Shown here piece after piece: positions 6,196 through 56,703 of a DNA stretch of 64,000 nucleotides. The translations under genes were made by a program, and so were the position numbers. This DNA is from an uncultured Clostridia bacterium (lineage in GTDB: Bacteria > Bacillota > Clostridia > Christensenellales > Borkfalkiaceae), in NCBI GenBank assembly GCA_944363395.1, contig CALVUC010000002.1:11798-75797 (forward strand), written 5' to 3'. Each line of letters opens with the position of its first letter. Within the stretch, counting starts at the first letter, position 1. Under the pieces are notes generated by a model. The model did not search any database. It was given only the letters and a program-made list of their open reading frames with translations, and was not told the origin of the DNA.

Positions 6196-6224
6196 ATTAT
6201 ACAACACCCCCCAATACCTGTCAA
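6196..6224 (-). promoter_or_regulatory. consensus sigma-70 promoter of the collagen-like lipoprotein gene
   Basis: Minus strand reads AAAGTATTGACA-17 nt (contains G6)-TATAAT. The -10 lies about 30 nt upstream of ATG 6165. Confidence 0.7.
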
Positions 6225-40832: not shown

Positions 40833-43800
40833 TTATTCCGTCTGCCCGGAGCGGTCCTCCGGCTCCGCAGGTTCTTCAGGCTCCGCGGGTTCTTCGGGTT
40901 CTGCGGGCTCTGCGGGTTTTTCGGGCGCCGCAGGTTCTTCGGGCTCTGCGGGTTCTTCGGGCGCCGCGGGTTCTTCGGGCTCCGCAGGCTCTGCCGCGTC
41001 TGCCGCCGCTGCCTCCGCTGCTTCCTCCGTCCCCTTCTTTTTAAGAAGGAACACGAGAAGGATGGCGACGAGGAGGATGACGACGACAGCGCCGAGGATC
41101 CAGCAGACCGTCACTTCCGCGGGCGAAAAGACCGCAAGGAACATGGGCAGCGCCGCGACCGAAGCCGCCTTTGTGCCGCCCGCACCGCCGTCCCCGCCGT
41201 CGCCGTCCCGCTTTTTGCGGCGGACGATGCCGACGATGAGGATGACGAGCTCGATTGCCGCGATGACCGCAAGCAGGATGATGAGCCACAGGAGCGAGAG
41301 CACTTCCTCTTCGATGAGCCAGGTGAACGTCACGGCGTCCGTCGTGCCGTCCGACCAGCAGTAGTTGGCGGGATCGCGGAGCGTGACGTACACGGTGTAC
41401 GTCCCCGCATCCAGCCTGATGTTGCCCTCGATCTCCATCGTTTCGTCATCGAAGCCCTCGGGCACATACTCGAGCAGACCGCCGTCCGCAATGAAGGCAT
41501 CCTTGTCTGCCGCGGGCTTTTCAATGGCGAGTTTTGCGATCGTCCACGTCAGGGTAGCGGTTTCGCTGCCGTCCTCCCAGACATAGTTGCCGCTCGTGAG
41601 CGCGATCTTCACCGTGTAGACGCCCGCATTGACCTCGCTGAGGACGGTCTTTCCGTCCACGACCGCGACTGCGCCTTCCGCGACCGCCATCATGAGCGGA
41701 TCGTAGCCGACGATCGCGTTCGTGAGCGATCCGCCGCTGTAGACGGACGAGCCCGTCTCGAGCGAAGGCAGCGCCACAGGGCGAGGAAGGATGCGGAACG
41801 CGACCGCCTCGGAGACGGCGCCGCCGTAGTTGCCCGCCGCCTCGACGTACGCTCTCACATAGTAGCTTCCCGCGTCCTCGGGAACGACGGACGAATACTC
41901 GCCGTCCTTCTCCGCCGAATACTTGTAGACGATAAAGTCGTTTCCGTACAGCGCCTGCGCGCCCGAAGGCACATTGGGTTCGTCGCCGTACATCCAGTCT
42001 TCGATGACGGGAGACTTGATAAAGGCGTTCTCCGCAGACGTGATGCGGAAGGTGACGGAGGCGACCGCCGCATTGGCATTGTCCCAACGGTAGTTCGCCG
42101 TATCCTTTAAGGTGAGGGTGACGGTGTAGCTGCCGACGTCCACCCAGTCGTCGCCCTGTTCGACCGTGTAGAGATCGGTCTCCGTGAGGTTGGACTGCTG
42201 CGGCTTGCCCGTGTAGGGCTTGGAGCCGGGCGAAGGCACGCGGACCATCTGCCGCTCGATGACGAACGCCGCGCTCGTCGTGCCGATCAGGCGATAGCTG
42301 TCGGTCGTGAGCGTTGCCGTCACGATATAGGTACCCGCCTTCGTGGGAACTGCCGTGGAGTTATAGGACGTGCCGTCGTTCGCGGTGCCCGTGTAGGTGA
42401 GGATCACGCCGACTTCGTCGTCCTCGTACGCGCCGTGGAGCGTCGCCGTCGCAGGCGTAATGGTGCCGCCGTACACGCCGCCGCCCGCAGCGATCGTGAC
42501 CGTGAGGTCGACGGAGCGAACAAAGAGCGTACCCGTCCTGTAATCGATCTCGTAGTTTTCCGCTTCCAGACCGCTTGCCCTGACCGTGTAGGAGCCTGCG
42601 GCGGAACCCGCGGTGTACCCGACGACCGTGAAGGTGAGGCTGCCCGTGAGCACGCTCTCGTCCTCGCCGCCGACAAAGCCGGCGTACGTCACGCCGAACG
42701 CGGAAGGCGCGTCTTCCCCGTAGTCGATGGTCGCCGTTCCGACGCGGACGACGAGCTGCGCCTTGCGGATGACGACGGTGAGTTCCACGAACGCATCGGC
42801 ATGGTTGACGGCGCTGAGCTTGCAGTAGACGGTGTATGTCCCCGCGTCCGTGAACGCGATCTGCTCGGTGCTCCAGACGGTGTCCTCGTCGTTGGTGAGC
42901 GCGTACTGCCAGGTGACCGCGCTGCCGTCCACCGCCGCGGCGCTGCCTGCCGTGCGGGCGTTGTGTTCTTCCGCATCGTAAGTGCCGGTATAGCCCTTGA
43001 CGCCCGAAAGCGCGATCTCGGCGGGAAGGATGGTAAACGTGAAGTAACCTTCCGCCGCGTTCCAGCTGTCCGTTGCCGCGACGGATGCGCGCAGCACATA
43101 GCTGCCGACGTCCGAAGGCATCGCGTCCGTCCAGTCGAGCGCCGAATAGTCGCCCGCAAAGTCTACGGGCAGGACCGCGTAGGCAAACACGGGTTCGCCG
43201 AACGCAGCCGTTGCGGAAGGCGTCTCGGGATCGCGCGCGCCGAAGTACGTCCATTCGTCGTCAAAGACGATCTCCTCGATCGCGTTCTCCGCCGCCGTGA
43301 CCGTCCAGGTAAGTTCGATGACGTCGTCCTCGCCCTGCCAGACGTAATTGAGGTCGGTGAGCGTGACGGTGACGGTGTAGACGCCGCCCGCCGTCGCATA
43401 GACGACGCCGTTTTCCGCACGCGCGCCCTCGGTGACGGAGACTTCCATCTTCGCGCCGTCGAAGTCCGCGATGACGTTGGAGAGCTCGTCGCCCGTGTAC
43501 GTCGTCTCGCTGACCGTGAGCGAGGGAAGCGGAAGCTGCGCGCGCCTCACGGTGAAGGCGAACGCCTCGGACTGCGCGCCCTTCCAGTTGCGGTCCCCCG
43601 TGACGACGGCGATCAGCCAGTAGTCGCCTGCGGCAAGATCGGTCATGTCGCCCCAGGTAAACCATTCGGTGACTGCGGACGTGTCGTCGCCCGTCCTGAC
43701 GGCGTACTCGTAGACGACGTCGCCGAAGTCCGCGGCTGCGTCTGCGGGCGCGTTGACGGTATCGTCGTATTCGCCGTACGTCCAAGGCGTGACGACGGGC

Positions 43801-46800
43801 TGCTCCGTGAACTTGTTCGCCGCCTGTTCGATGGTAAAGCCGACCGTAACGGTATCGCCCTCGGCGCCCTTCCACTTGTAGTTGGGGTCGATGATGGTGA
43901 GTTCCACGTCATAGGTGTTGACGTTGATCCAGCCGCCGCCCTGTTTGACGGAATAGATGTCGTTCGTCGCAAGATCTGCGGTGAGCGGCTTGCCCGTATA
44001 CGGCTTGCTCTGCGCGGCGGGGATCTCCACCTCGGCGCGCCCGATCGTAAACACCGCGCTCGTGGGGTCAAGGCTGTAATTGCCCGCATCGGCGCCCGCA
44101 AGCGTCGCCGTTACGATATAGGTCCCCGCATCCGTCGGCACATCCGTGGAATTGTAGGACGCGCTGTCCGTATAGGTGAGCGTGATGGTGACCGTGTCGC
44201 CGCTGACGATGTCGCCCGCCGCAAACGCCGCCTCGGCAGGCGTGACCGTGCCGCTATAGACGCCGCCGTTCGGGGTGATGGTGACCGTGACGGGCTTCGC
44301 CGTGATGGTGTAAGCGCCGTTCTTAAAGACGATCTCGTAGTTGCCGATGCCCTCGGGCGAGCCGACGATGCTGCCCTCGACGGGATAGCTGCCGACGTCG
44401 CTCGTCGCGTCCGCCGTCGTCGAGAGTGCGATATAGTCCCCGTACGCCGCTGCAAACGCCTCGTCGTCCGCAGACCATGTCACTTCGTCCGCCGAGACCT
44501 CGCTGCCGTAGACGGAGGATGCGCTGCCGATGGTGACGTTGACCGTCTTTTTCCTGACGATGAGCGTGCCCTTGACGATATCGAAGTCGTAGTTTTTCGC
44601 TTCGATCCCCGAAACGGTGACATCGTACTCGCCCGCCGCGCCGCTGTACCCTTCGGCGGTGAACACGGGCGTACCCGTAATGACGGTCTGCGTCTCGCCG
44701 AGGACAAAGCCGCGGTATTCGATCGAATAGCTTTCGGGCGCTTGTTCGCCGTAGACGATCTCGGCGCTGCCGATGACGACGCCGAGCGTCGCCTTATCGA
44801 TCCTGACCCGGAAGGAGCTGGTCGCATCCGCATGGTTCTTTGCGCTGACCTTGTACCAAACGGTGTATTCCCCCGCGTCCTTCAACGCGATCTGCGCCGT
44901 CTGCCAATCGTTCTGCCCGTCGAGGCGGTACTGCCAGGTGACCGCGCTTCCGTCCACCGTCTCGGCGGTACCCGCCGTGCGGGCGTTGTGCTGCCTGCCG
45001 TCGTAGGTGCCGGCATAGCCCGCGACACCCGAAACGGCGATCTCGGCGGCTTCGATCGTGAACTGCTTATACGCGACCGCGCCGTTGTAGTTGTTCGTCT
45101 TTGCGACGGTGGCGCGGACGACGTACCTGCCCGCATCCGTCGGGAAGCCGCCCGTCCAGCCCGTCACCGCGCTGTAATCTTCACCCGTGAAGCCTTCGGG
45201 CAGGAGCGCGTACGCATACACCGCCGTGCCGTACGTTGCCGAAGCCTGCGGAAGCGTCGACGGCGTGTCGCCGTACGTCCAGCTGTTGCCCCCCTCGGCA
45301 TCGGGAATGGCGACGGTGTTGTCCGCTGCCGCGCGTACCGTCCAGGTGAGGACGACAGCTTCGGCAGTACCGTCTTCCCAGACGAAGTTGTCGCTCGTCA
45401 GGGCGATCGTGACCGTGTACTCGCCCGCGTTGCTCGTCTGCACGCATACGGTGAACCCGCCTTCCGTCGACGTCGCGATCGTCGCGGTCGAGGAAACGGT
45501 CATCGTGCCGGAGACATAGCCGTTGACGTTGTTGGTAAGAGGCGTGCCGTTGTAGACGTCCACGTTATAGGTGCTTTCCGCCGTATCGAGCGCAGGAAGC
45601 GCGACCCCCAGCGGCGAAATGGTGAACTCGGCATACGCAAACGCCGTGCCATACCCGCTTGCAACATTGCCGGGATAGTACGCGCGCACCCAATAGCTGC
45701 CCGCGTCGGAAGGAAGGGTCTTGGAATAGACCGCGCCCGCGGGCGACCCCGCTTCCGTCCGTACGGCATACGAGAAGATGATATCCGACGTATCGCCGTA
45801 GGTAAGTTGGAGGATGTTGTCCAGACCTGTGCCGTTCGTCCACGCTGCGGGCGTTCCGTACGTCCAGCCGAGATCGGCTTCTTCCAGGAAGGAAAGCTCG
45901 TTGAGTTCCGCGGAGACCTCGAAGCCGATCGTCGTCTCGTTCCCCTCGTCAAACGTATAGTTGTTAAAATCTTTGATGGTGATGACGACCGTATACGTTC
46001 CTGCCACGCCGTTTACGGTGATCGTGTAATCGTTGGTGCTGACTGCCTGCTGCAAGATCTGCGCCCCGTTACCGACCGCCACCTGCGTGCCGACCGAAAG
46101 GACGGTGTCGATCGGGTCTTCGTAGCCATCGAGGCCGTAAAACAGCAGCCGGTTCTTGTGCTCGGTTATGTCCTGATCGACCTGGATCGCAGTCTTCTCC
46201 CAATCGGCATCCAGCAGGCGCTTTGCGATGTCGTACCCGAACTCGTCCGAATACGTCTCGCCTTTCGCAAAGATATAATTGTCGTCGGTGATCTCGACCT
46301 TTGCGAAGTATACGCCCGCATTGACGGGCTCCGTCGTCACCCATTCGTCTGCGCTGCCGCCGAGGAAGGCGCCGTTGTTGCACGTTCCCCTGTACCAGAC
46401 TTCATGCGCAACGCTGTCCGTGTCGTACTTGTTTGTAAATTCGACGATCGCGGCGATCGGATCGCCGTAGCAGTACTGCTCGCTGCCCGGCGTCACGCTG
46501 ACCGTGACGACGCGCTTTTCGACCGTGAGCGTGCCTTTCTCGAACACGATGGTATAGTTGGAGGAAGTGAGCCCGCTCGCCGAGATCGTGTATTTGCTGC
46601 CTGCCGCGTCGCCCTGCGCATACGCCGCGTTGCCGTCCTTGCTCGCCGTCGTATAGACGATCGTACCCTTGAGGTCGGAGAATGTGGAGCCGTTCTCGTT
46701 CCCTTCGTTATTGACAAAGCCGCTGTATTTGACGGTAAACAGCGCATCGGCGTCGAGCGCGTCGCCGTAGGTGATGGAAGCATCCTGCACGGTAACGGTG

Positions 46801-49800
46801 AGCGTCGCCCGCCCGATCGTGAGTTTGCCCCAGGTGTTGCCGCCTTCCTGCGAGCCGTTGCCCGCGAACGTCACGGCATAGTTGCCGTTTTCATACGTCG
46901 CCGTGATGTCGTGTGTGCCCGCGTTCACGCCCGTTGTCGCAAGCGTGACGTGGAGATCGGCTTTGTCGTCGCCCCCGTAGAGGTCATCGACCGTGAATTC
47001 GCCCTGCGTAAGCGCCGCCGTGACGCCCGTGTACGTCGTGGTCTGATCAAGGATGGTGACCGTGACCGCGCGCTGTTCGACCGTGAGCGTCGCCGCTCCC
47101 ACAATGATATTGTAGTTGCCCGAGGAGAGGCTCTCCGTCGTCACCTCGTACACGGAGCCCGCCGCCGCGCCCGGCGCGTAGGCATTGCCGCCGCTGTCGC
47201 GGGTCAGATAGACGATGGCGTCATAGCCTTCCAGCAAGCGCTCGTCCTCGCCGTCCGCAAAGCCGCTGTACGAAACGGAGAATGCGACCGAACCGATCGC
47301 GTCGCCATAGACGATCGCGCCTTCACTGCCGCCGTCCACAAGGACGGTAACGGTGAGATCCCGCCTTTCGATCGCGAACTCACGCGCGGCGTCCGCCATC
47401 GCATAGTTGGGATCGGTGACACGGACGGTGACCTTGTAGCTGCCGACGCCGACGGGCGCCGTGGACGAAGCCGCATAGTCCGTGCCGTCCACGCCCTCGT
47501 AGGTCACCGTGTAGCCGTTCCATTCCTCGTCGACGATCGCCGCAGCGCCCTCCTTGGTGAAGGTGAGCTTGACGGGATGCTCCTGCGCGTCGTAGGTGAG
47601 ATCCGGATCCGGCGTGATCGTGACGCCGATCGCACGCGCAATGATCTCGAAGGAGATCCCCGACGAACCTGCGGTGAAGTTGGGGTTATCCGACGTGAAC
47701 TGCACGCGGTAGTACCCGGCGTCGACGGGGGCATATTCCTGCCCTTCCCCGAGCTCCTCAAACTTGCTAAGGTCGGCAAGATCGGGGTTCCAATCTTCCG
47801 CCGCTCCTGTGTAGACATAGTACACGGGCGTAAGCTGCGCCGCTTCCCCGCCCTGCGTGGTCGCGGAATACTGCTTTGCCGCGCCGTCATACTCAAGAGA
47901 CCCTGGTGCGGTGATATTGATGGAGACCGTCGTCACGCCGATCGTGTAGCTGCCGACTTCGCCCTCGTAGACGGTTTCGCCGTCGGAAGTGATGGTCTGC
48001 GTGCCGCCGTTTCCCTCAAACCCGATCTCGTAATTTTTGGCGTAATCATTGAGAACGGGGTAGATATAGTACGTCCCGACGGGAGACGTGTTCGTTGCCG
48101 TGGTGCGAAGTTCGAAGGGAACCTCGCTGTTGTAGAATGTCTCCTCGATGCAGCTCCATGTCAGGTCACCGAGTTCGGCAAGATAGTCGCTGCCCGCGTC
48201 GTTGATCCGCACGGTGACGGCGCGCTTGTTGACAGTGAGGTAGCCATCGACCGCGGTCACCGTATAGTTTTTGGCTTCGCCCAAGAACTTCGTATAGATC
48301 ACATAGGAGTTTTCGCCCGCGGCGTTGCCCGTGAAATAGCTTGTCTCAATGGTGTCGACCGAAAGCCCGGTTTTAAGGAGGGTGTCAAAGTTCTCGCCGT
48401 TTGCATAGGCGCCTTGCGTGGCGCGCGCCACATACGAGCTGTGCTCGTCGCCCTTGAAGTCTTCGGCGGCGCCGTAGCCGTAGGTGACCTCGCCATAGAT
48501 GGCGATGGAGATGGCGATCTTTTCGATCTTGACCGTGACGAAGTCGATCACGTCTTTATGGTTGTCGGCGCTGACTTTGTACCAGACGGTGTATTCCCCC
48601 GCGTCCGTAAACGTCGGCATCGACGTCCAGCCTTCCGCATCCGCAGCGGGCTGCGAGTCGCTGACGATGAACGTCCAGTCGGCATCCTTTCCGTCCGCTG
48701 TCGCAGCGGTATACCCATCGACGAGGGCGTTGTGCGCCGCGGCGTCGTACGTTCCCGCATAGCCCTCTGCGCCGTCGACGGTAATGTCCGCCTTTTTGAT
48801 CGTGTACTTATGCGTGAAGGTATCGCCGAGTTCGTAGTTGTCGCCCCAATCGCCGATAGTTGCCGTGAAGGTGTATTCTCCCGCGGCGATGAAGTCGGCG
48901 GAACTGCCGTCCTTTGCAATACTCTCGCCGAGGTCGAGCGTGCCGTCATCATTGACGCCCGTTGCCGAAGCGAACGCGCCGCCATTTCCCTCATACAGAT
49001 CTGCGCCCGTGTAAACGAGATCATACGCCGCCCAGTCGACCGACGTGATCGTGTACTTGTCGACGACGAGTTTTTGTTCGGGCGTGTAGTCCCGATCGGT
49101 CTCGCCCTTGGTGAAGGTATAGTTCGGGTTGTCGATCGTCAGCGTGATGGTATAGCTGCCCGCAGGGGAAGCCGCGTCAGCCCAGACGTCGCTTGCGTCC
49201 ACGCCCTCGTAGGTGACTTCGCCTTTGAGGATATCCTGCGCCTCGCCGTTGACGAGACCTTTAACGCTCCACGCCGTCCCCTTCGCGCTGCCGTAAGTGC
49301 CGCCGTCGTAGGTGAACGCAGGCGTCAGGAGGGCGGGCATGATGGTGAAGGCGTCTTCAAAGGTCTTGCGCTCATTGCCCGCGTCGCCCGTCCAGCCCGT
49401 AACGGTAAAGTTGGGGTTGGTGAAAGTGAGCGTGACCGCGTAGCTGCCCGCGTCCCTATTTTCCGCGATCTCGAAGACGATCGCATCGTCGAGGTCGGCG
49501 TCGAAGGTGTCGCCCGTAGTAACGATGTAAGAATCGTTCAGACCGCCCGTGAACACCTCGGAAGCGTCATACGCCGTGCCGCGGTAGGGTTCACTCTTTT
49601 TGACGACGTCGATCCCGATCTCAGCCGGTTTGATCGTGTACTCGTGCGTGAAGGTCAAGGTCGTACTGAGTACATAATTATATGCCTGCTCGGTGGTCAG
49701 TTTCGCCTCAAACAGATAGGTGCCGACATCTTGGAACCTCACCTCGACGCCGTTTTGCGTGATCTTCTCGTCGAGCATGAGCGAATCTTCGTCATAGAGG

Positions 49801-52800
49801 CTGACGCCTTTCGTCGTTGCGAAGCGCTTATCATATTTCTGATACAAATCGGCATTGCAGTAGGTCAGGTCATGACCTCCCCACCAACTCACACTGCCGG
49901 TCATATAGCGCTCAATCGTAAATTCCTTCTTCTGCGACATCGCGCCGCCTGCGAGCTGATAGTTCTTGTTGCCGATGGTCGCCGTGACGGTGTATTTGCC
50001 CGCTTCGAACTTACCCGTAAAGTCTCTTCCGCTGTTGAGCGTGGCCGCATACGAGAAGGAGAGTTCCGCATCTTCATCTTCGATCGTATCTTTCGTAAAA
50101 TCGATCTGAATCTGATCGTCGCCGAGGAAGGAACCGTAGACGGTTTTCTGCGGCTCGATCGTAAAGGCGATCGTATAGGGCGTGATCGTGAAATCCTGCG
50201 AAAGCCCGCTTGCGCCCGTGAGCGTGTAGTTGGCGTTGGTAATTTCGACGATCGCAACGGTGTAGCTGCCGACGTCGACCGCCTTGCCGCCCGTGAGCTC
50301 GCTGTCCTTCTTCGTCACCTGATAGGTGATGCCGAGACCGTCGATCGTATCCTCCTCATACTGCGCGTTGAACGACGCCGCTTCGGGCTGATAGGACGTA
50401 CCCTGCCCGCCGTACTCCGCCGTGCTGCCGTCCCACTTCACTGCGAGCGCGCGCGGTCTGATCGTGAAGGAAGCGTCCGTAACGTTCAGGATGAAGTTGT
50501 CCGTGTGGATGGAAACGCCGTCCGCCCATTGCGCCGTGACGGTGTAGCTTCCCGCGTTGCGGGGCTTGCCTGCGACGAGCTGCGCGCCCGTGGTGCTTTT
50601 ATAGACGAGCTGCAGCGAGCCTGCCGTGACCTTCTCGTAGGTAAAGCCGCCGCCGTCGGTCGCGTTGTCCTTGATGTCGGCATCTGCGATGGCAGCTTCC
50701 TGCCATTCGCCGTACATCGCGCCATTGCCGTGTACGGTGACGCCGATCGTGCGCGCCTCGATGGTGAAGGAAACGGGATCGGATGTCGTGCCGGAGTAAG
50801 CGTCTGTCTGCGCAACGCTTGCGACGACATAATATTCGCCGACATTCGTTGGCATTCCGTTCAACTCGTCGCGCCCGCCCTCATCGTAGGCATCTTTTTC
50901 ATAATAGAGGTAGGTGACCTCACCGGGGTCGGAAACAGGCGCGCCGCTCGCGTCGGTGATCGTGGTATTCAGTTTGATCGCACCGTTGCCGCCATAAGTC
51001 CAACTGCTTTCGCTGAGAGAGACCTCCGCCTTGACCTGCGCCTTCGTGATCTCATACACGACCGTAACGGTCACACCGTTTGCGGAGAGCGTATCCTCAA
51101 ACGTATCGTCCTTATACAGCCCGGTCCACGCATAGTTTTCGGGATGGGTAAGCTCGATCGTGACCGTATATTGGGCAACCGCATTGCCCGAAGGGCTGCG
51201 CGTGACAATCGTGTAGAGTTTGGGATTCTCCTCGATCTTAAGATGGCTGTCCGCCGAGTTCGTGAAGGGAATACGGCGGTCGCCGTCAGTCAGATCGCCT
51301 TCGATATCCGGTTCCGAGACGATCTCCGAAACGCTGATCTGTGCCTTGGTAATGGTGAAATCGCTTTCACACTGTTCTGCGTTCAGATAATAGTTGCCTT
51401 CGCTGATGGAGAGCGCGACATGATAACTGCCCGCATTGACCGCGCTGTCGCCCGTAAGTTCGCTGTCCTCCTTCGCCGTCACCTCATAGGTGATGGTGTA
51501 GTTGGCGCTGTCGCCTTCCGGCATCCAGCCGCTGACAGTATATTCGGGAACAAACGCCGCCTCATCATATGCCGCGGAGAGCTCGTCCCATTGGACGGTC
51601 AGTTCTGCCTGTTTGATGACAAAGTCCTCGAACACAACGGGGTTGCGATCGTCGCCGTCCGACCACTTATAGTTATCGGAAGCAAGGCTGACCGTGACGG
51701 TGTATGTACCGGCATTTGTCTGCACGTTCCCGTCGATCATCATCGTGCTTTCGCCGAAAGGCTTCGGGTCGTAGCCTTTGGGCATATAGGTTTGCTCGCC
51801 GCCGTTATAAGTGAAGTCGACGTTCGCCATTGCCGTGGGCTTGTCGACCGCATAGGGCGTGATCGTGAAGTCCTTTGAAAGATCGGCTGCGTCTTTGAGC
51901 GTGTAGTTGTCGTTGGTAATTGCGTCGATCGCAACGGTGTAGCCGCCGACGTCGATCGCCATGCCGTCTGAGAGCGCGCTGTCCGCCTGCGCCGTCACCT
52001 GATAGGCGATGCCGACGGTGTCCTGCACGCCGTTCTGCGAGGCGAGGTTTACGATCGTCGCTTCGGGGTTCCACGCATCCCCGTCATATACATGGGTCAG
52101 CGTCCCCCACTGCACTTCGATCACGCGCGGGCTGATCGTAAATTCACACGTTACATCTTCGGGCAGCGTGTAGTTGTCCGCGCCCGTGCCCTCGATCCGC
52201 ACGACTTCGGCGGTGTAACCGGTACCCGCATTCGTCCGCTCGCCCGAGACCGTCAGAGAGATGCCGTCGCGGGCATAGGCGTTCGCCGCCGTTGCCGTGG
52301 GCTTGTGCGCCCCGCCGTCGTAAATGAACGACGTGTCCGACCAGCCGATCGTAAGTTCGAGCGGCGTGATCGTGAAGGAGAGTTCTTTCTCTGCCGCCGT
52401 CGAAGCGTCGGGGTTCGTATCGTCCGCCCACTTGTGGTTGTCGCTGTCCGTAAGGGTCAGCGTGACGGGGTATGTAGCCGCATCCACCCAATCGCCGCCT
52501 TGTTCGACGGAGTACAGGTCATTTTGCGCAATGTCGGCGGTCTGCGCCGCGCCGTTGTAAGTCTTGGAGCCGATCGTGGGAACATCGACTGCCTTCTTGG
52601 CGATCGTCCATGTAAACGGCTTATCATCGGTCGTCCCGTCCGACCACACGAGGTTGGCGGTATCGCCGAGGGAGGCGGTGACGGTGTACTTCCCCGCATT
52701 GGTCGCCTTCAGTTCACCGCTCGCAAGATCGGCGGACGCGCCGTCCGAGATCGTAAGCGTGACGCGCGTCTCGATCGAAAGCCCGGCGGAAGGCGCCCAG

Positions 52801-54695
52801 CCCGCAAGCGAGGCCGTCTGCGTGCTGCCGCTGTATGTATAGCCGGGATCGGTGAAGGAAGGCGCGGAGATCTTCAGTTTGGCGATCGAGTAGGTGATCG
52901 TCAGGGTGTTGCCGCTGACCGCGTAACCTTCGCCGTCGATGTCCTCGCTCCAGGTCGCCTCGTCCGCGTCCTCGATCGTAAACGTCGCGGTGTATTCGCC
53001 CGCATCGGTGCCGCCCGCATTCGTGACGGCGAGATAGCTCGCATCGTTCTCCCCCGCGTAGGTCACGGCGGGAGCCTGACTTGCGCCCGTATAAGTGAGC
53101 GCGGAAAGCGTCGGCGCACCCAGCACGCGCTGCCCGATCGTGAACGTGGCGAGCTCTTTGTCCTCCACCGCCGTGAAGTTGCCGCTCGCCGCGACGCTGA
53201 CGGTGAGCGTGTAAGTCCCCGTCTCGTTGGGAAGGTTGGGTTCCGTCCCCGAGCCGCTCGTCGGGCCGCCGCCCGTCTTGCTGTAAGTGTAGGTGACGTC
53301 GCCGCCGCCGTAGTTATTCAAAAGGGTAAAGGAGACGTCGTCGTCGCGGTTCCAATGAAGCTCGCCTTCCTGATAGGCGCTCTCGCTCCATTTGAGCTCG
53401 ATCGGCGGCTCCACGGGATAGATCTCATATTCGACCGTGACCTCGCGGAGATCTTCGTTATTCTCATCATTACGGAAGAAGTACGCCTGCGCCGACTCTT
53501 TCAGCGCCACGGTCACGGTATAGGTGCCTGCGTCCGTGACGGTAATGGAACCGTTGGAAGCATTATACGTCGGCGCCGTCCCGGAAAATCCTTCCTGCGC
53601 GGAGACGCCCGTGATCTCCATGATGGCGGGATCATAATAACTGTTCAGTCCGATCGTCTGCTTTGTCCCCGTGACGATATTGTCCGAAACGGAATATTGA
53701 TAATCGCTGCCCTCTGCGGAGAAGTTGGGGGCAGTCACGGCGACGCGGCTGACTTGAAGATCGGCATAACATTCTACCGATGTTCCGTTTTCAGTATAAG
53801 TGATCTTGACCCTGCCGCTTCCGTCTTCATAAATGTAGCCCGTAGCGTCGGGATCGACTTCCCAGCCGCCCTCCTCGGTCTTGCGCATATATTCAACGCG
53901 ATATGCACCGAAGGACAGCGTAACCGTACCGCCCGAATATACGACCGTCACAGTCAAATCGCCTGCCTTACAAGGCGCAAGCGCATTGACGGAACTTCCT
54001 ACCGCAAACATGGAAACGGGCGTAGCCGGGTTGACGCCGGTGACCGTACAAGGGCAGGTGATATTGGTCACGCTGCCGCCCTCTTGATACGCGACCGTAA
54101 CTTCTACGTCGTACGGAGCATTCACATTCGGCGTCTTGGGCGCAAGGTTCCCCTGGATCGTATATTCGCTTTGAGAAAGGGTGTCTTCCGTCCCATCCCA
54201 CCCGATCGCCTTCACGGTGAAATAACTCGGGATCGTGACAACGGGCGTATACGAATAGAGCGTCGCGCCGCCGTTGTATGTAGCAGAAATCGACCTTACC
54301 GCATCCTTCTGCGCGGTAAAGCCTGTAATATGAAACGGCTCGGACTGCACGTCGCCCCCCGAAACGACGACGGTAAATTCGTTCGTTTCGTTGGAACCTT
54401 CCGCAAAGTTCGCCTCCAATTCAAATTGCGACGCCCCGAGTTCGCCCAGCGACGTCCCGTCGGCATCAAACGCCTCAACGGTAAGCGCATTCTTGAGCTG
54501 CGCGTACGAGGTGTTTTCGTCGATCTCGTAACCGGGATCGAGTTTCAACCCGACCTTGACGGACTCGATCGCACTTGTGTCCTCCACGTCCGCGGAAGCC
54601 GGGACGGGCTCCGTGCAGACCCACGCAAATACCGCCGCTGCGATCATCGCCAGCAGCAGGAAAAAGCGCGTCCATGTTCTGACCTTTGTTCTCAT
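40833..54695 (-). CDS. giant (4620 aa) repetitive cell-surface protein: signal peptide, about 45-50 Ig-like/MBG-YDG-type repeats, C-terminal membrane helices, acidic PE-repeat tail
   Basis: ORF 40833..54734 trimmed to ATG 54695 behind GGAGGG. MRTKVRTWTRFFLLLAMIAAAVFAWVCTEPVPASA signal peptide. I counted about 47 (D/N)(A/V)GxYxV signatures. Many ...TITxAxLTVxxxxxxxxYG/YDG...Y.GFV.GE... units. No LPXTG. Confidence 0.9.
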   Translation of the reverse strand: MRTKVRTWTRFFLLLAMIAAAVFAWVCTEPVPASADVEDTSAIESVKVGLKLDPGYEIDENTSYAQLKNALTVEAFDADGTSLGELGASQFELEANFAEGSNETNEFTVVVSGGDVQSEPFHITGFTAQKDAVRSISATYNGGATLYSYTPVVTIPSYFTVKAIGWDGTEDTLSQSEYTIQGNLAPKTPNVNAPYDVEVTVAYQEGGSVTNITCPCTVTGVNPATPVSMFAVGSSVNALAPCKAGDLTVTVVYSGGTVTLSFGAYRVEYMRKTEEGGWEVDPDATGYIYEDGSGRVKITYTENGTSVECYADLQVSRVAVTAPNFSAEGSDYQYSVSDNIVTGTKQTIGLNSYYDPAIMEITGVSAQEGFSGTAPTYNASNGSITVTDAGTYTVTVALKESAQAYFFRNDENNEDLREVTVEYEIYPVEPPIELKWSESAYQEGELHWNRDDDVSFTLLNNYGGGDVTYTYSKTGGGPTSGSGTEPNLPNETGTYTLTVSVAASGNFTAVEDKELATFTIGQRVLGAPTLSALTYTGASQAPAVTYAGENDASYLAVTNAGGTDAGEYTATFTIEDADEATWSEDIDGEGYAVSGNTLTITYSIAKLKISAPSFTDPGYTYSGSTQTASLAGWAPSAGLSIETRVTLTISDGASADLASGELKATNAGKYTVTASLGDTANLVWSDGTTDDKPFTWTIAKKAVDVPTIGSKTYNGAAQTADIAQNDLYSVEQGGDWVDAATYPVTLTLTDSDNHKWADDTNPDASTAAEKELSFTITPLELTIGWSDTSFIYDGGAHKPTATAANAYARDGISLTVSGERTNAGTGYTAEVVRIEGTGADNYTLPEDVTCEFTISPRVIEVQWGTLTHVYDGDAWNPEATIVNLASQNGVQDTVGIAYQVTAQADSALSDGMAIDVGGYTVAIDAITNDNYTLKDAADLSKDFTITPYAVDKPTAMANVDFTYNGGEQTYMPKGYDPKPFGESTMMIDGNVQTNAGTYTVTVSLASDNYKWSDGDDRNPVVFEDFVIKQAELTVQWDELSAAYDEAAFVPEYTVSGWMPEGDSANYTITYEVTAKEDSELTGDSAVNAGSYHVALSISEGNYYLNAEQCESDFTITKAQISVSEIVSEPDIEGDLTDGDRRIPFTNSADSHLKIEENPKLYTIVTRSPSGNAVAQYTVTIELTHPENYAWTGLYKDDTFEDTLSANGVTVTVVYEITKAQVKAEVSLSESSWTYGGNGAIKLNTTITDASGAPVSDPGEVTYLYYEKDAYDEGGRDELNGMPTNVGEYYVVASVAQTDAYSGTTSDPVSFTIEARTIGVTVHGNGAMYGEWQEAAIADADIKDNATDGGGFTYEKVTAGSLQLVYKSTTGAQLVAGKPRNAGSYTVTAQWADGVSIHTDNFILNVTDASFTIRPRALAVKWDGSTAEYGGQGTSYQPEAASFNAQYEEDTIDGLGITYQVTKKDSELTGGKAVDVGSYTVAIVEITNANYTLTGASGLSQDFTITPYTIAFTIEPQKTVYGSFLGDDQIQIDFTKDTIEDEDAELSFSYAATLNSGRDFTGKFEAGKYTVTATIGNKNYQLAGGAMSQKKEFTIERYMTGSVSWWGGHDLTYCNADLYQKYDKRFATTKGVSLYDEDSLMLDEKITQNGVEVRFQDVGTYLFEAKLTTEQAYNYVLSTTLTFTHEYTIKPAEIGIDVVKKSEPYRGTAYDASEVFTGGLNDSYIVTTGDTFDADLDDAIVFEIAENRDAGSYAVTLTFTNPNFTVTGWTGDAGNERKTFEDAFTIMPALLTPAFTYDGGTYGSAKGTAWSVKGLVNGEAQDILKGEVTYEGVDASDVWADAASPAGSYTITLTIDNPNYTFTKGETDRDYTPEQKLVVDKYTITSVDWAAYDLVYTGADLYEGNGGAFASATGVNDDGTLDLGESIAKDGSSADFIAAGEYTFTATIGDWGDNYELGDTFTHKYTIKKADITVDGAEGYAGTYDAAAHNALVDGYTAATADGKDADWTFIVSDSQPAADAEGWTSMPTFTDAGEYTVWYKVSADNHKDVIDFVTVKIEKIAISIAIYGEVTYGYGAAEDFKGDEHSSYVARATQGAYANGENFDTLLKTGLSVDTIETSYFTGNAAGENSYVIYTKFLGEAKNYTVTAVDGYLTVNKRAVTVRINDAGSDYLAELGDLTWSCIEETFYNSEVPFELRTTATNTSPVGTYYIYPVLNDYAKNYEIGFEGNGGTQTITSDGETVYEGEVGSYTIGVTTVSINITAPGSLEYDGAAKQYSATTQGGEAAQLTPVYYVYTGAAEDWNPDLADLSKFEELGEGQEYAPVDAGYYRVQFTSDNPNFTAGSSGISFEIIARAIGVTITPDPDLTYDAQEHPVKLTFTKEGAAAIVDEEWNGYTVTYEGVDGTDYAASSTAPVGVGSYKVTVRVTDPNYAMADAAREFAIERRDLTVTVLVDGGSEGAIVYGDAIGSVAFSVSYSGFADGEDERLLEGYDAIVYLTRDSGGNAYAPGAAAGSVYEVTTESLSSGNYNIIVGAATLTVEQRAVTVTILDQTTTYTGVTAALTQGEFTVDDLYGGDDKADLHVTLATTGVNAGTHDITATYENGNYAVTFAGNGSQEGGNTWGKLTIGRATLTVTVQDASITYGDALDADALFTVKYSGFVNNEGNENGSTFSDLKGTIVYTTASKDGNAAYAQGDAAGSKYTISASGLTSSNYTIVFEKGTLTVEKRVVTVSVTPGSEQYCYGDPIAAIVEFTNKYDTDSVAHEVWYRGTCNNGAFLGGSADEWVTTEPVNAGVYFAKVEITDDNYIFAKGETYSDEFGYDIAKRLLDADWEKTAIQVDQDITEHKNRLLFYGLDGYEDPIDTVLSVGTQVAVGNGAQILQQAVSTNDYTITVNGVAGTYTVVITIKDFNNYTFDEGNETTIGFEVSAELNELSFLEEADLGWTYGTPAAWTNGTGLDNILQLTYGDTSDIIFSYAVRTEAGSPAGAVYSKTLPSDAGSYWVRAYYPGNVASGYGTAFAYAEFTISPLGVALPALDTAESTYNVDVYNGTPLTNNVNGYVSGTMTVSSTATIATSTEGGFTVCVQTSNAGEYTVTIALTSDNFVWEDGTAEAVVLTWTVRAAADNTVAIPDAEGGNSWTYGDTPSTLPQASATYGTAVYAYALLPEGFTGEDYSAVTGWTGGFPTDAGRYVVRATVAKTNNYNGAVAYKQFTIEAAEIAVSGVAGYAGTYDGRQHNARTAGTAETVDGSAVTWQYRLDGQNDWQTAQIALKDAGEYTVWYKVSAKNHADATSSFRVRIDKATLGVVIGSAEIVYGEQAPESYSIEYRGFVLGETQTVITGTPVFTAEGYSGAAGEYDVTVSGIEAKNYDFDIVKGTLIVRKKTVNVTIGSASSVYGSEVSADEVTWSADDEAFAAAYGDYIALSTTADATSDVGSYPVEGSIVGSPEGIGNYEIVFKNGAYTITAKPVTVTITPNGGVYSGTVTPAEAAFAAGDIVSGDTVTITLTYTDSASYNSTDVPTDAGTYIVTATLAGADAGNYSLDPTSAVFTIGRAEVEIPAAQSKPYTGKPLTADLATNDIYSVKQGGGWINVNTYDVELTIIDPNYKWKGAEGDTVTVGFTIEQAANKFTEQPVVTPWTYGEYDDTVNAPADAAADFGDVVYEYAVRTGDDTSAVTEWFTWGDMTDLAAGDYWLIAVVTGDRNWKGAQSEAFAFTVRRAQLPLPSLTVSETTYTGDELSNVIADFDGAKMEVSVTEGARAENGVVYATAGGVYTVTVTLTDLNYVWQGEDDVIELTWTVTAAENAIEEIVFDDEWTYFGARDPETPSATAAFGEPVFAYAVLPVDFAGDYSALDWTDAMPSDVGSYVLRASVAATDSWNAAEGYFTFTILPAEIALSGVKGYTGTYDAEEHNARTAGSAAAVDGSAVTWQYALTNDEDTVWSTEQIAFTDAGTYTVYCKLSAVNHADAFVELTVVIRKAQLVVRVGTATIDYGEDAPSAFGVTYAGFVGGEDESVLTGSLTFTVVGYTAGSAAGSYTVRASGLEAENYEIDYRTGTLFVRSVDLTVTIAAGGGVYGGTITPATATLHGAYEDDEVGVILTYTGTANDGTSYNSTAVPTKAGTYIVTATLTTDSYRLIGTTSAAFVIERQMVRVPSPGSKPYTGKPQQSNLTETDLYTVEQGDDWVDVGSYTVTLTLKDTANYRWDNANAAVASVTFRITSAENAFIKSPVIEDWMYGDEPNVPSGAQALYGNDFIVYKYSAEKDGEYSSVVPEDAGSYYVRAYVEAAGNYGGAVSEAVAFRILPRPVALPSLETGSSVYSGGSLTNAIVGYDPLMMAVAEGAVAVVDGKTVLSEVNAGVYTVKIALTSGNYVWEDGSETATLTWTIAKLAIEKPAADKDAFIADGGLLEYVPEGFDDETMEIEGNIRLDAGTYTVYVTLRDPANYCWSDGTTDAVTFTWLIEEEVLSLLWLIILLAVIAAIELVILIVGIVRRKKRDGDGGDGGAGGTKAASVAALPMFLAVFSPAEVTVCWILGAVVVILLVAILLVFLLKKKGTEEAAEAAAADAAEPAEPEEPAAPEEPAEPEEPAAPEKPAEPAEPEEPAEPEEPAEPEDRSGQTE
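40857..40997 (-). repeat. tandem repeat encoding (P-E-E-P-A-E)n in the C-terminal tail of the giant protein
   Basis: Plus strand shows reiterated ggttcttcgggctc(t/c)gc(g/a)g units, translating to AEPAEPEEPAAPEEPAEPEEPAAPEKPAEPAEPEEPAEPEEPAEPE. Confidence 0.85.
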
Positions 54696-54715
54696 ACCGT
54701 TTCCCTCCGATATCC

Positions 54716-54741
54716 CATATGCGCACATCTGCACGCATATG
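54716..54741 (-). other. 8-bp-stem hairpin in the 5' leader just upstream of the giant gene RBS
   Basis: catatgcg-10 nt-cgcatatg, about 8 nt from the GGAGGG Shine-Dalgarno. Confidence 0.4.
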
Positions 54742-54977
54742 CGGCACCCCTTGGAAGATGCCGTGTTCCCATGCGGTCTCCCGCACTTGCTGCCTTTGCC
54801 CGCGGAGCCGCAGCCCCGCCCGTTATGACGGCTCTATTATAGGATAGACGCCGCACGCCGTGCCTTTGACATTTTGTCCTTTCCTGCAAGATCGCGTCGA
54901 GTTTCGCCCGCGACGGCATTTTGTTAAATTTCCTAACAATATTGGGAAGAGGATAAAATTGCCCATTAGACATATCT

Positions 54978-55004
54978 ATTATAGCACCCCCCCCGTTTTG
55001 TCAA
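54978..55004 (-). promoter_or_regulatory. candidate promoter of the giant gene with a G8 homopolymer in a 15-nt spacer
   Basis: Minus strand reads AAAGTATTGACA-aaac-GGGGGGGG-tgc-TATAAT (tgtcaa 54999..55004, C8 54987..54994, attata 54978..54983). It lies about 280 nt upstream of ATG 54695. Confidence 0.5.
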
Positions 55005-55240
55005 TACTTTGAGGAAAAAAAGTTTGCCTTTTTGATAAATTTTTCATGAAAGCGTTAAAAAAAATGTACGCATTGTGTCTATTTCTGACAGTTTATTGGC
55101 ATTTTTCCTGAAAAACCCAAAATTCCATTGGCATTTTCTGTAATTTTTGATAAAATCAAACATCTCTACCCACAGTAGAGACAAAAAATGTCACTTGCGC
55201 CGCGGCGGGGCGCGTTTTCGCGAGCGCCCCGCCGCGGCGC

Positions 55241-55284: not shown

Positions 55285-56703
55285 TTATGGTTCCGCACGC
55301 CCCAATGGCGGCTGCGCGCGGTCGGCGGGCAGTTCAAACACGGCGAGCGTCTCCACCCACTTGGTCTGCGGGAACATATCGAAGGGCTCGACCGAGCGCA
55401 GAACGTAGCCATCCTGCGTACCCGTCTTGACGAGCGCGCCGTCCCGCTCCGCAAGCGCCCCTGTCAGAAGCCCCGCGTCCCTTGCGAACGTGGCGGGATC
55501 GCAGGAGATCATCACGATCTTTTTGGGACGTTCCCGCAGCAGCAGCGCAATGACCTCGCGCGCGACACCCGCGCGGGGCGGATCGAGCACGACGAGCGCG
55601 GAGGGCTCCTTGGCGAGCACGCCCGCCAGCTCGTCCTCCACCCTGCCGCAGAGCGCGGTCATCTTCCCCGAAAGCCCGTTGCGCCCGGCGAGCGCCGCGG
55701 CGCAGGCGGAGGCTTCGGGAACGACTTCGATGCCGTACGCCCTTTTGCACTTTTTTGCAAACTTCGCCGTGAGCAGCCCGCCGCCCGCGTAGCAGTCGAT
55801 GACCGTATCCCCTTCGTCCGCGCAGGAGAGGGCGCGCTCGTAGAGCTTGGTCCGCACGTTCTCGTTGACCTGCACAAAGGTGCGCGGCCCCGCCTCGTAA
55901 GAGATACCGCCCTCCGAGCATTCATAGATGCCCTTCCCCTTCAGCAGGGTAAACGTTTCGCCGAAGATGACGTTGCTCTTTTTATCGTTGTAGTTGAGAT
56001 AGAAGCTGAACTCGCGGAAGATCTCGCCCAGACGGAACAGGAGATAGTCGATGCCGTTGAGGACGGGCACGGTGACGACGAGCGTGATGATGAACTTGCC
56101 GCGCAGTTCGCGCACGACGATATGGCGGATCTGCCCCTCGCCCGTCTCCTCGTCGTAGCCGTCCAGCCCGCACTTCTCCATAAAGTTGTAGACCGCCGCA
56201 ATGAGCTTGTCCGCCCACTCGGGGTGCAGCGGGCAGCCGTCGATCGGCACGATCCTGTGCGAACGTTCGGCAAAAAAGCCGATCACATTCCTGCCGTCCC
56301 TGCGCCCGACGGGAAGCTGCAGCTTGTTGCGGTAGCCATACTCCTTCTCGCTGCGCTCGCACGCGGCGACGGGGACGCCGATTCCCGCGATCTTCTTTAA
56401 GGCGTCGCGCACGAGCCCCGTCTTGAAGCGGAGCTGCGCGCGGTATTTGACGTGCTGGAGCTGACAGCCGCCGCAGCGCCCGAACACGGGGCAGGCGGGA
56501 CGCACGCGCTCCTCGGCGGGCGTCAGAAGTTCTTCGATCTTCGCATAGGCGATATTGCCCTTGCATTTGAGGATCCTGACCGAGGCGCGCTCGCCGGGCA
56601 GAAAGCGCGGCACAAAGAAAGTGACGCCGTCCGCACGGGCGATCCCCTCGCCCTGCGTTCCCAGCGCTTCGCAAGTCACGGTGATGATGTCGTTCTTTTC
56701 CAT
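55285..56703 (-). CDS. rlmD: 23S rRNA (uracil-C5)-methyltransferase RlmD/RumA family
   Basis: 472 aa. N-terminal TRAM domain, Fe-S Cys cluster CPVFGRCGGCQLQH, SAM-MTase motifs (DCYAGGG, DPPRAG). Confidence 0.9.
   Translation of the reverse strand: MEKNDIITVTCEALGTQGEGIARADGVTFFVPRFLPGERASVRILKCKGNIAYAKIEELLTPAEERVRPACPVFGRCGGCQLQHVKYRAQLRFKTGLVRDALKKIAGIGVPVAACERSEKEYGYRNKLQLPVGRRDGRNVIGFFAERSHRIVPIDGCPLHPEWADKLIAAVYNFMEKCGLDGYDEETGEGQIRHIVVRELRGKFIITLVVTVPVLNGIDYLLFRLGEIFREFSFYLNYNDKKSNVIFGETFTLLKGKGIYECSEGGISYEAGPRTFVQVNENVRTKLYERALSCADEGDTVIDCYAGGGLLTAKFAKKCKRAYGIEVVPEASACAAALAGRNGLSGKMTALCGRVEDELAGVLAKEPSALVVLDPPRAGVAREVIALLLRERPKKIVMISCDPATFARDAGLLTGALAERDGALVKTGTQDGYVLRSVEPFDMFPQTKWVETLAVFELPADRAQPPLGRAEP

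Follow-up and report, generated by a model that had tools for sequence, protein, structure and literature searches.

The 64-kb stretch of DNA analyzed here (the window; part of contig CALVUC010000002.1 from an uncultured Clostridia bacterium) carries on its minus strand a giant gene of 4,620 amino acids (aa), delimited at 40833..54695 from its open reading frame (ORF) and Pfam matches. This gene is the predicted target of a promoter that has a run of eight G residues, hereafter the G tract, between its -35 and -10 hexamers. By comparing the locus among strains of the same species, we find that the G tract is very probably a genuine hypermutable site, a conclusion drawn from alignments of its natural alleles. 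We further consider it probable that changes in tract length grade the output of the promoter, making it a phase-variable switch for the giant gene. Below we describe the promoter and its alleles, the gene behind it, the readings that compete with a switch, and the known systems that it resembles.

Promoter anatomy and natural spacer alleles

Read directly from the minus strand, the promoter region has the letters caaagtaTTGACAaaacGGGGGGGGtgcTATAATagatatg. Both hexamers match the consensus perfectly: the -35 hexamer TTGACA lies at 55004-54999 and the -10 hexamer TATAAT at 54983-54978, the latter 283 nucleotides (nt) from the giant-gene ATG at 54695. Between them is a spacer of 15 nt (aaacGGGGGGGGtgc, that is, aaacggggggggtgc; 54998-54984), in which the G8 homopolymer (54994-54987; C8 on the plus strand) makes up 8 of the 15 bases. 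The spacer ends in TGc, which places the TG of an extended -10 element (TGnTATAAT) at 54985..54986, a feature that the first-pass annotation of this DNA had overlooked. That annotation had singled out a G8 run in the 15-nt spacer of the sole near-consensus promoter upstream of the giant gene, and both the coordinates and our scans agree with it. On the coding strand of the 590-bp intergenic region, TTGACA/TATAAT is the sole strong promoter-like site; a relaxed scan of the same strand and region gave no second credible promoter and, with spacers of 16-18 nt, no other site reaching 9 of 12 consensus positions. Another TATAAT, at 54841-54836 (minus strand), is kept in all strains, matches 2 of 6 bases at its -35 position, and lacks TGn.

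Scanning the window for near-consensus promoters (at most one mismatch of 12, spacers of 13-21 nt), we found eight in total, five of which have TGn. The G8 promoter has a 15-nt spacer and all seven others have spacers of exactly 17 nt, so the uniform 17-nt spacing claimed earlier for the other promoters stands and their earlier count of eight does not. Perfect pairs of the form TTGACA-N(13-21)-TATAAT occur three times in the window versus 0.00 expected from 100 dinucleotide-preserving shuffles. The G8 tract is the only G/C run of at least 8 in the window, a count that is unsurprising by composition (2.7 expected; at least one run in 85 of 100 shuffles), and the DNA of related species holds one such run in 653 kb (80 loci). 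If anything, runs of this length are depleted in the window, and they are avoided in the clade. What is non-random about the G8 run is its position within the spacer of a perfect promoter.

We recovered the locus from other strains by exact-protein look-ups with the upstream methyltransferase and the members of its 90% cluster (63 members), the neighboring 183-aa protein, and two N-terminal fragments of the giant protein. The resulting survey set of 41 independent contigs comprises that of the window and 40 others, assembled from metagenomes in several studies and belonging to the same chicken-gut species, a relative of Candidatus Gallimonas. Among these contigs, identity across the intergenic region is 98-99.9% once the spacer is set aside; within the spacer, 13 of 15 columns are variable (619-column alignment of 28 full intergenic sequences). 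The -10 hexamer is the same in all 41 contigs, and the -35 hexamer is TTGACA in 38 and TTGAAA in 3. The spacer occurs in 13 alleles, whose longest G runs range from 4 to 13 residues; it measures 13 nt in 2 contigs, 15 nt in 3, 16 nt in 19, 17 nt in 16, and 20 nt in 1.

The shortest allele, AAAC-G8-C, occurs in the two contigs with 13-nt spacers. The 15-nt state of the window is a minority one (3 of 41 contigs), made up of AAAC-G8-TGC in the window and in L129 and of AAAC-GGAGGGGG-TGC in a single contig. Among the 16-nt alleles, AAAC-G9-TGC is found in 11 contigs, AAAC-G9-CGC in 3, AAAC-GGCGGGGGG-TGC in 2, and AAAC-GGAGGGG-TGTGC, which comes with the -35 variant TTGAAA, in 3. Spacers of 17 nt are built in more ways: AAACA-G9-TGC and AAATA-G9-TGC (4 contigs each), AAAC-GGGGGAGGGG-CGC (5 contigs), AAAC-G10-CGC (2 contigs), and AAAC-G10-TGC (1 contig). 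A single contig carries AAAC-G13-CGC, with a spacer of 20 nt. Interrupted variants of the tract (G2AG5, G2CG6, G5AG4) are thus present beside the uninterrupted ones. The extended -10 element varies as well, with CGC replacing TGC in one strain lineage (11 contigs, 10 of them at 16-17 nt) and the TG missing in 2 contigs. However they are composed (G9 plus A, G9 plus TA, G10, G5AG4), spacers of 16-17 nt are found in 35 of the 41 contigs. This predominance is consistent with selection for a functional spacing accompanied by stochastic excursions.

Near-clonal pairs of contigs, which we define as those with at most 3 substitutions over at least 1.8 kb, isolate the behavior of the tract from that of its surroundings. 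Over 2,572 nt, the window (G8) and L005 (G9) are separated by one substitution and one gap. L103 (G10) differs from both L105 and L106 (G9) by one substitution and one gap in 4,431 nt, and L108 (G13) differs from L103, L105, and L106 by no substitution and one gap in 3,070 nt. L105 and L106 are identical across 4,431 nt, the hypervariable start of the giant gene included, and both are G9. In all, uninterrupted tracts differ in six of seven near-clonal pairs (0-1 substitution, 2.6-4.4 kb), and the tract indel is the only gap. The first-pass annotation had argued that slippage changes the distance between the hexamers and had named an invariant tract length across strains as evidence that would overturn the idea. 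The strains compared here show the tract to vary (13 alleles and five lengths in 41 contigs), and with the tract indel as the sole gap in near-clonal alignments the hexamer spacing shifts among 15, 16, and 17 nt and exceptionally to 13 or 20 nt.

Slippage should be suppressed where a homopolymer is interrupted, and the spacer is indeed identical within each of the two near-clonal pairs whose tracts are interrupted (L109/L123 and L112/L113). Two T runs in the same intergenic region, 55057-55064 and 55015-55021 (A8 and A7 on the plus strand), range from T6 to T8 and from T5 to T8 between lineages and are constant within clones. G8 occurs in two lineages, those of the window and L129, whose nearest relatives have G9 or TAG9; length changes therefore recur. 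From at least 3 length events at one site versus 2 substitutions in about 7 kb, we roughly estimate that tract length may change 10^3 to 10^4 times faster than the per-site substitution rate, and an excess of this size is in the range expected of contingency loci. As a separate observation, L105 and L106 come from different studies (BRZ_MB; ONAT22-1 SAMEA6814614), and the clone they represent evidently circulates widely in chickens.

The giant gene and its leader

An ORF list places the start of the giant gene at GTG 54734, and the first-pass annotation had adopted this position. We instead favor ATG 54695 as the credible start, because a Shine-Dalgarno sequence, GGAGGG (54708-54703, minus strand), stands 7 nt ahead of it and a typical signal peptide, MRTKVRTWTRFFLLLAMIAAAVFAWVCTEPVPASA/DVE, follows it. 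Beyond the signal peptide, Pfam identifies MBG_2 domains (5 stretches), YDG, MBG_3, and MBG, and the C-terminal part of the protein has two hydrophobic segments and an acidic tail rich in Pro and Glu. An NCBIfam scan of the protein returned no family. Based on the signal peptide, the repeats, and the C-terminal membrane segments, we predict that the protein is surface exposed and adhesin-like. Full-length orthologs of 4,601-4,636 aa are present in other strains, where intact genes are found behind promoters of the types G9-TGC, G9-CGC, GGCG6-TGC, G5AG4-CGC, AG9-TGC, and TAG9-TGC.

The gene is also allelically diverse. DNA homology among strains is 98-99.9% up to 54580, which is about codon 38 and the end of the signal peptide, and then collapses in most strains; the conserved first ~38 codons (54581..54695, minus strand) were delimited from blastn end-points and translations. 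In the translations, the mature N-terminus falls into two allele classes, one beginning DVEDTSAIESVKVGLKLDPGYEIDE... (the window, L091, and L097) and the other beginning DVEEDGRQGEVSLLALPENVTV... (most other strains), which share about 40% identity in their first 400 aa (P0002). A search with the N-terminal 400 aa found only 2 proteins because the region is hypervariable. Many metagenome contigs stop at 54580 or at 54630-54632 (polymorphic codons 22-23), and this pile-up of contig ends at the allele boundary suggests that strains with different giant-gene alleles co-occur. As a proxy for tract heterogeneity within samples, contig ends were uninformative, since they gather at this boundary and at T runs and do not cluster at the G tract. 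The arrangement looks like a cassette-like allelic replacement in which the promoter, leader, and signal peptide are conserved and the putative adhesin behind them is exchanged. With its predicted secretion and anchoring, its MBG repeats, and its allelic diversity, the giant protein would be a typical contingency-locus product.

The predicted 5' leader of about 276 nt (54696..54971, minus strand; its start is placed about 7 nt past the -10 hexamer) folds better than shuffled sequences (z = -3.7) and is highly conserved, with about 11 of roughly 300 columns varying in the 28-sequence alignment. An Rfam search of the leader and intergenic region gave sub-threshold noise only and no family. Possible roles of the leader are in stability, antitermination, and translational control. 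A 93-aa ORF in the leader (54692-54973), whose TGA overlaps the giant-gene ATG, was considered as a leader peptide and rejected as non-coding because 3 strains carry a 1-nt deletion in it; its composition is like that of GC-rich non-coding sequence and it has no Shine-Dalgarno sequence. There is thus no further gene between the G-tract promoter and the giant gene.

Upstream, on the same strand, lies a gene for a TRAM-domain RNA methyltransferase of 472 aa (55285..56703; Pfam). Its 3' end is followed by a terminator hairpin and T8 run (55270-55248), a perfect 19-bp hairpin (55242-55195), and a third hairpin with a T-rich tail (55183-55161). With three hairpins or terminators in this position, read-through into the giant gene is unlikely and the gene therefore needs a promoter of its own. 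We also observed that the 10-nt loop of the 19-bp hairpin (55214-55223) is exactly reverse-complemented in L101, L104, and L107, from CCGCGAAAAC to GTTTTCGCGG; this is a hairpin-mediated inversion (template switching) that segregates in the population.

The proposed switch and its alternatives

Sigma-70-type promoters work best with a spacer of 17 ± 1 nt and lose activity steeply outside this range. We propose that the promoter of the giant gene, which is of the sigma-70/SigA type, contains a slippage-prone G repeat in its spacer, and that G residues gained or lost during replication would move the -35 and -10 hexamers apart or together. If the locus behaves like porA of Neisseria meningitidis, output should be highest with G10 (17 nt), intermediate with G9 (16 nt), and low with G8 (15 nt, as in the window), and spacers of 13 or 20 nt should leave the promoter essentially off. 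Point mutations that interrupt the run would lock the spacing. The outcome would be a heritable and reversible heterogeneity in the amount of a surface protein, that is, a graded volume control, and the window would represent a low state shared by few strains. The TGn element is expected to buffer the effect of tract length in TGC-type strains, and the dependence on spacing should be stronger in the CGC lineage. Several parts of this proposal are inferred from sequence, namely that the G-tract promoter is the active one, that spacing sets its strength, and that switching within a clone is frequent and reversible.

Four of the six defining features of contingency loci were tested and all four were found. 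The repeat is slippable (about 7 or more poly-G/C; G8 in the window and G8 to G13 in the strains), it lies wholly inside the core promoter spacer with lengths of 13 to 20 nt realized in nature, it is polymorphic in close relatives with constant flanks, and its target appears to encode a surface or interaction molecule, surface exposure being predicted. The two other features, frequent reversible switching within a clone and a dependence of expression on tract length, are predicted ones: the recurrence of G8 in two lineages would lend the first indirect support only, and the second is expected from the way promoters in general respond to spacer length and from porA, with TGn perhaps weakening it.

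Several points weigh against a switch. Extended -10 elements (TGn) can make promoters largely independent of the -35 hexamer in E. coli and Firmicutes; a length change may therefore matter little in TGC-type strains, and the switch may give a graded output instead of an ON/OFF choice. All of the sequences are consensus assemblies from metagenomes, in some cases at 3-7x coverage, and such data are prone to errors in homopolymers of at least 10. The 283 nt between the -10 hexamer and the start codon is an unusually long distance, and the TATAAT at 54841-54836 lies within it. Lastly, the giant gene has premature stops or frameshifts in L091 (aa 648), L092 (aa 674), and L117 (aa 221), whatever the promoter state (17, 13, and 16 nt). 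These stops could be either real pseudogenes or assembly errors. As a side observation, L091 differs from the window within the giant gene by complex indels and not by homopolymer slips.

The main rival to a switch, to which we give a minor but real share of the probability, is that the tract is hypermutable yet near-neutral, with TGnTATAAT driving transcription without a -35 hexamer and the length polymorphism reflecting mutational noise. The TGc directly before TATAAT and the presence of TGn in five of the eight promoters of the window fit this reading, as does the apparent tolerance of spacers from 13 to 20 nt, in several cases with intact genes of 4,600 aa. However, a dispensable -35 hexamer sits poorly with a perfect TTGACA kept in 38 of 41 contigs, and 35 of 41 spacers are at 16-17 nt despite a tract that is capable of drift. 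One lineage has lost the TG (CGC, 11 contigs), and 10 of its contigs have 16-17 nt spacers. G/C runs of at least 8 are also purged elsewhere in the clade, and the persistence of the tract in all lineages suggests that it is tolerated or favored.

A less probable alternative, which we regard as unlikely, is that the giant gene is transcribed mainly from another start, either at the TATAAT at 54841-54836 or from an activator-dependent promoter within the 276-nt leader, so that the G-tract promoter is minor or serves something else. The unusual distance of the -10 hexamer from the start codon and the conservation of this second, perfect TATAAT in all strains speak for it. But the second TATAAT has 2 of 6 matches at its -35 position and no TGn, and no other coding-strand site reaches 9 of 12 with a spacer of 16-18 nt. 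With the leader ORF non-coding, the G-tract promoter also has no other downstream gene that it could serve.

It is very improbable that the differences in length arose as mistakes in sequencing or assembling a homopolymer. Several contigs do have low coverage (2.6-7x), Illumina sequencing and assemblers are less reliable on long G runs, and G13 was seen only once. Nevertheless, such errors cannot explain the pattern because most alleles are found again in independent samples and studies (G9-TGC in 11 contigs, AG9 in 4, TAG9 in 4, and G5AG4-CGC in 5, and further G9-CGC in 3, G10-CGC in 2, G8C in 2, and G8-TGC in 2), because contigs with 10-142x coverage (L093, L105, L109, L110, L112, and L124) carry different alleles, and because the alleles include substitutions and non-G insertions unlike slippage artifacts. 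The near-clonal alignments, moreover, contain no other indels.

We reject as extremely improbable the reading that the promoter sits on an inverton, an invertible segment of the sort by which gut Clostridia and Bacteroides usually achieve phase variation, with the G tract incidental: an imperfect inverted repeat does bracket the promoter (54856-54875 / 55185-55204; 20 nt, 75% complementary, with a perfect 9-nt core TGACATTTT/AAAATGTCA), but it is weak and probably due to chance, the promoter has the same orientation in 41 of 41 contigs, and no recombinase was found among nine neighboring genes scanned against Pfam.

If the G tract is a promoter switch, its length may decide the expression of about 0.5-1% of the coding capacity of a small genome, given a gene of 14 kb. 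At a wider scope, we hold it about an even call that uncultured gut Christensenellales (Gallimonas-like) use porA-style poly-G contingency loci, until now typical of mucosal pathogens with small genomes, to dial a giant adhesin-like protein with exchangeable alleles, with point mutations yielding 'locked' forms (G5AG4 at 17 nt, G2AG5 at 15 nt). If true, this would be a case of bet-hedging against host immunoglobulin A (IgA) or phage that is based on simple sequence repeats (SSRs), and an overlooked kind of strain-level variation in commensal Clostridia that is detectable in metagenomes. Consensus metagenome-assembled genomes (MAGs) hide tract states, and the 15-nt state in the window is itself a minority allele. 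The natural series of spacers (13, 15, 16, 17, and 20 nt, and the locked alleles) is a ready-made experiment, and public chicken-gut read sets could reveal within-host heterogeneity without culturing.

Related species and known promoter switches

A search of genome contigs identified orthologs of the methyltransferase that are 45-78% identical at 80 loci in MAGs of Candidatus Gallimonas, uncultured Clostridia/Christensenellaceae, and Borkfalkia. These MAGs are mostly from chicken, rabbit, and mouse gut, and the species of the window is not among them. Gallimonas is a Candidatus genus from chicken-gut metagenomics (PMC8035907), and we found no functional literature on it. In the 653 kb of related-species DNA there is no consensus promoter containing a G/C run of at least 7. 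In L011, one relative that was read downstream of the methyltransferase gene, the giant gene is not syntenic. This contig (MAG.400; methyltransferase 77% identical) carries a G10 run at 5898-5907, which is intergenic, lies by a terminator-like hairpin, and has no recognizable promoter; it is the only G/C run of at least 8 in those 653 kb. A pattern scan of JGI metagenomes for the promoter with a variable gap (AGTATTGACAAAA-N3-22-TGCTATAATAGAT) gave two matches, both unrelated chance promoters of other organisms.

Two further sites in the window bear a resemblance to parts of the G8 promoter. The only other G/C run of at least 7 is a C7 at 913-919, which is 3' intergenic, just past the TGA at 903-905, and is not associated with a promoter. 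At 6196-6224 (minus strand), a second perfect TTGACA-17-TATAAT promoter shares the sequence context upstream of it, GTATTGACA, with the G8 promoter, and its spacer contains a run of six G residues (G6). The gene downstream of it (3373-6165, minus strand) encodes a 930-aa lipoprotein with collagen-like repeats and weak matches to Scl/Lcl adhesins. This promoter may be a shorter, stable relative of the G8 promoter design.

Homopolymer-in-promoter switches are textbook knowledge in Neisseria, Bordetella, Haemophilus, and Mycoplasma. To our knowledge, commensal Clostridia offer hardly any documented case and this chicken-gut lineage none. Most phase variation in gut commensals is at present ascribed to invertons and methylation switches. 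For commensal gut Clostridia and for Gallimonas, our literature searches turned up no description of a homopolymer promoter switch, and the phase-variation matches that they returned concern invertons and methylation.

The closest known parallel is N. meningitidis porA (and the poly-C of opc), in which a homopolymeric G tract likewise lies between the hexamers of a surface-protein promoter (9-11 residues in porA, 8-13 here) and differs in length between strains. The porA spacings, as van der Ende et al. are said to have reported in 1995, correspond to the 17/16/15-nt series of the strains studied here. Surface expression from porA falls about 2-fold from 11G to 10G, and at 9G it is 13-fold below the 11G level (PMC3639595). 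Unlike porA, the locus described here belongs to an uncultured Gram-positive-type gut commensal (Christensenellales, Gallimonas-like) and not to a proteobacterial pathogen, it controls a 4,620-aa MBG-repeat protein and not a porin, it has a TGn extended -10 element and a 276-nt leader, and it is known from sequence alone.

In Bordetella pertussis, single-base polymorphism in the C-stretch of fim promoters tracks transcript abundance, with a 3.8-fold difference between C7 and C8 in fimX (PMC1891110). The fim2/fim3/fimX promoters resemble the G8 promoter in having a poly-C/G tract ahead of a surface adhesin gene and length polymorphism among strains. They differ in that the fim tract spaces the binding region of an activator (BvgA) from the -10 hexamer, whereas here the tract separates canonical hexamers and no activator is implied. 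The poly-A tract of Mycoplasma hyorhinis vlp and the TA repeats of Haemophilus influenzae hifA/B switch lipoprotein and fimbrial genes through spacing and, as in the window, are repeat tracts inside the -35/-10 spacer. These are A or TA repeats that serve small multigene families or a divergent promoter pair, in contrast to a poly-G tract serving a single giant gene. Invertons in gut commensals (Bacteroides, Clostridia) generate heterogeneity in surface structures (PMC11892184). The outcome proposed here is the same, surface heterogeneity in gut commensals, but invertons depend on site-specific inversion by a recombinase and the G-tract promoter has one orientation in all contigs of the survey. 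The mechanism that we propose for the giant gene would match SSR-in-promoter switches of the kind known from porA/opc, fim, vlp, and hif and would involve no new principle; its interest lies in the host, in a controlled gene that is very large and allelically diverse, and in the natural allele series.

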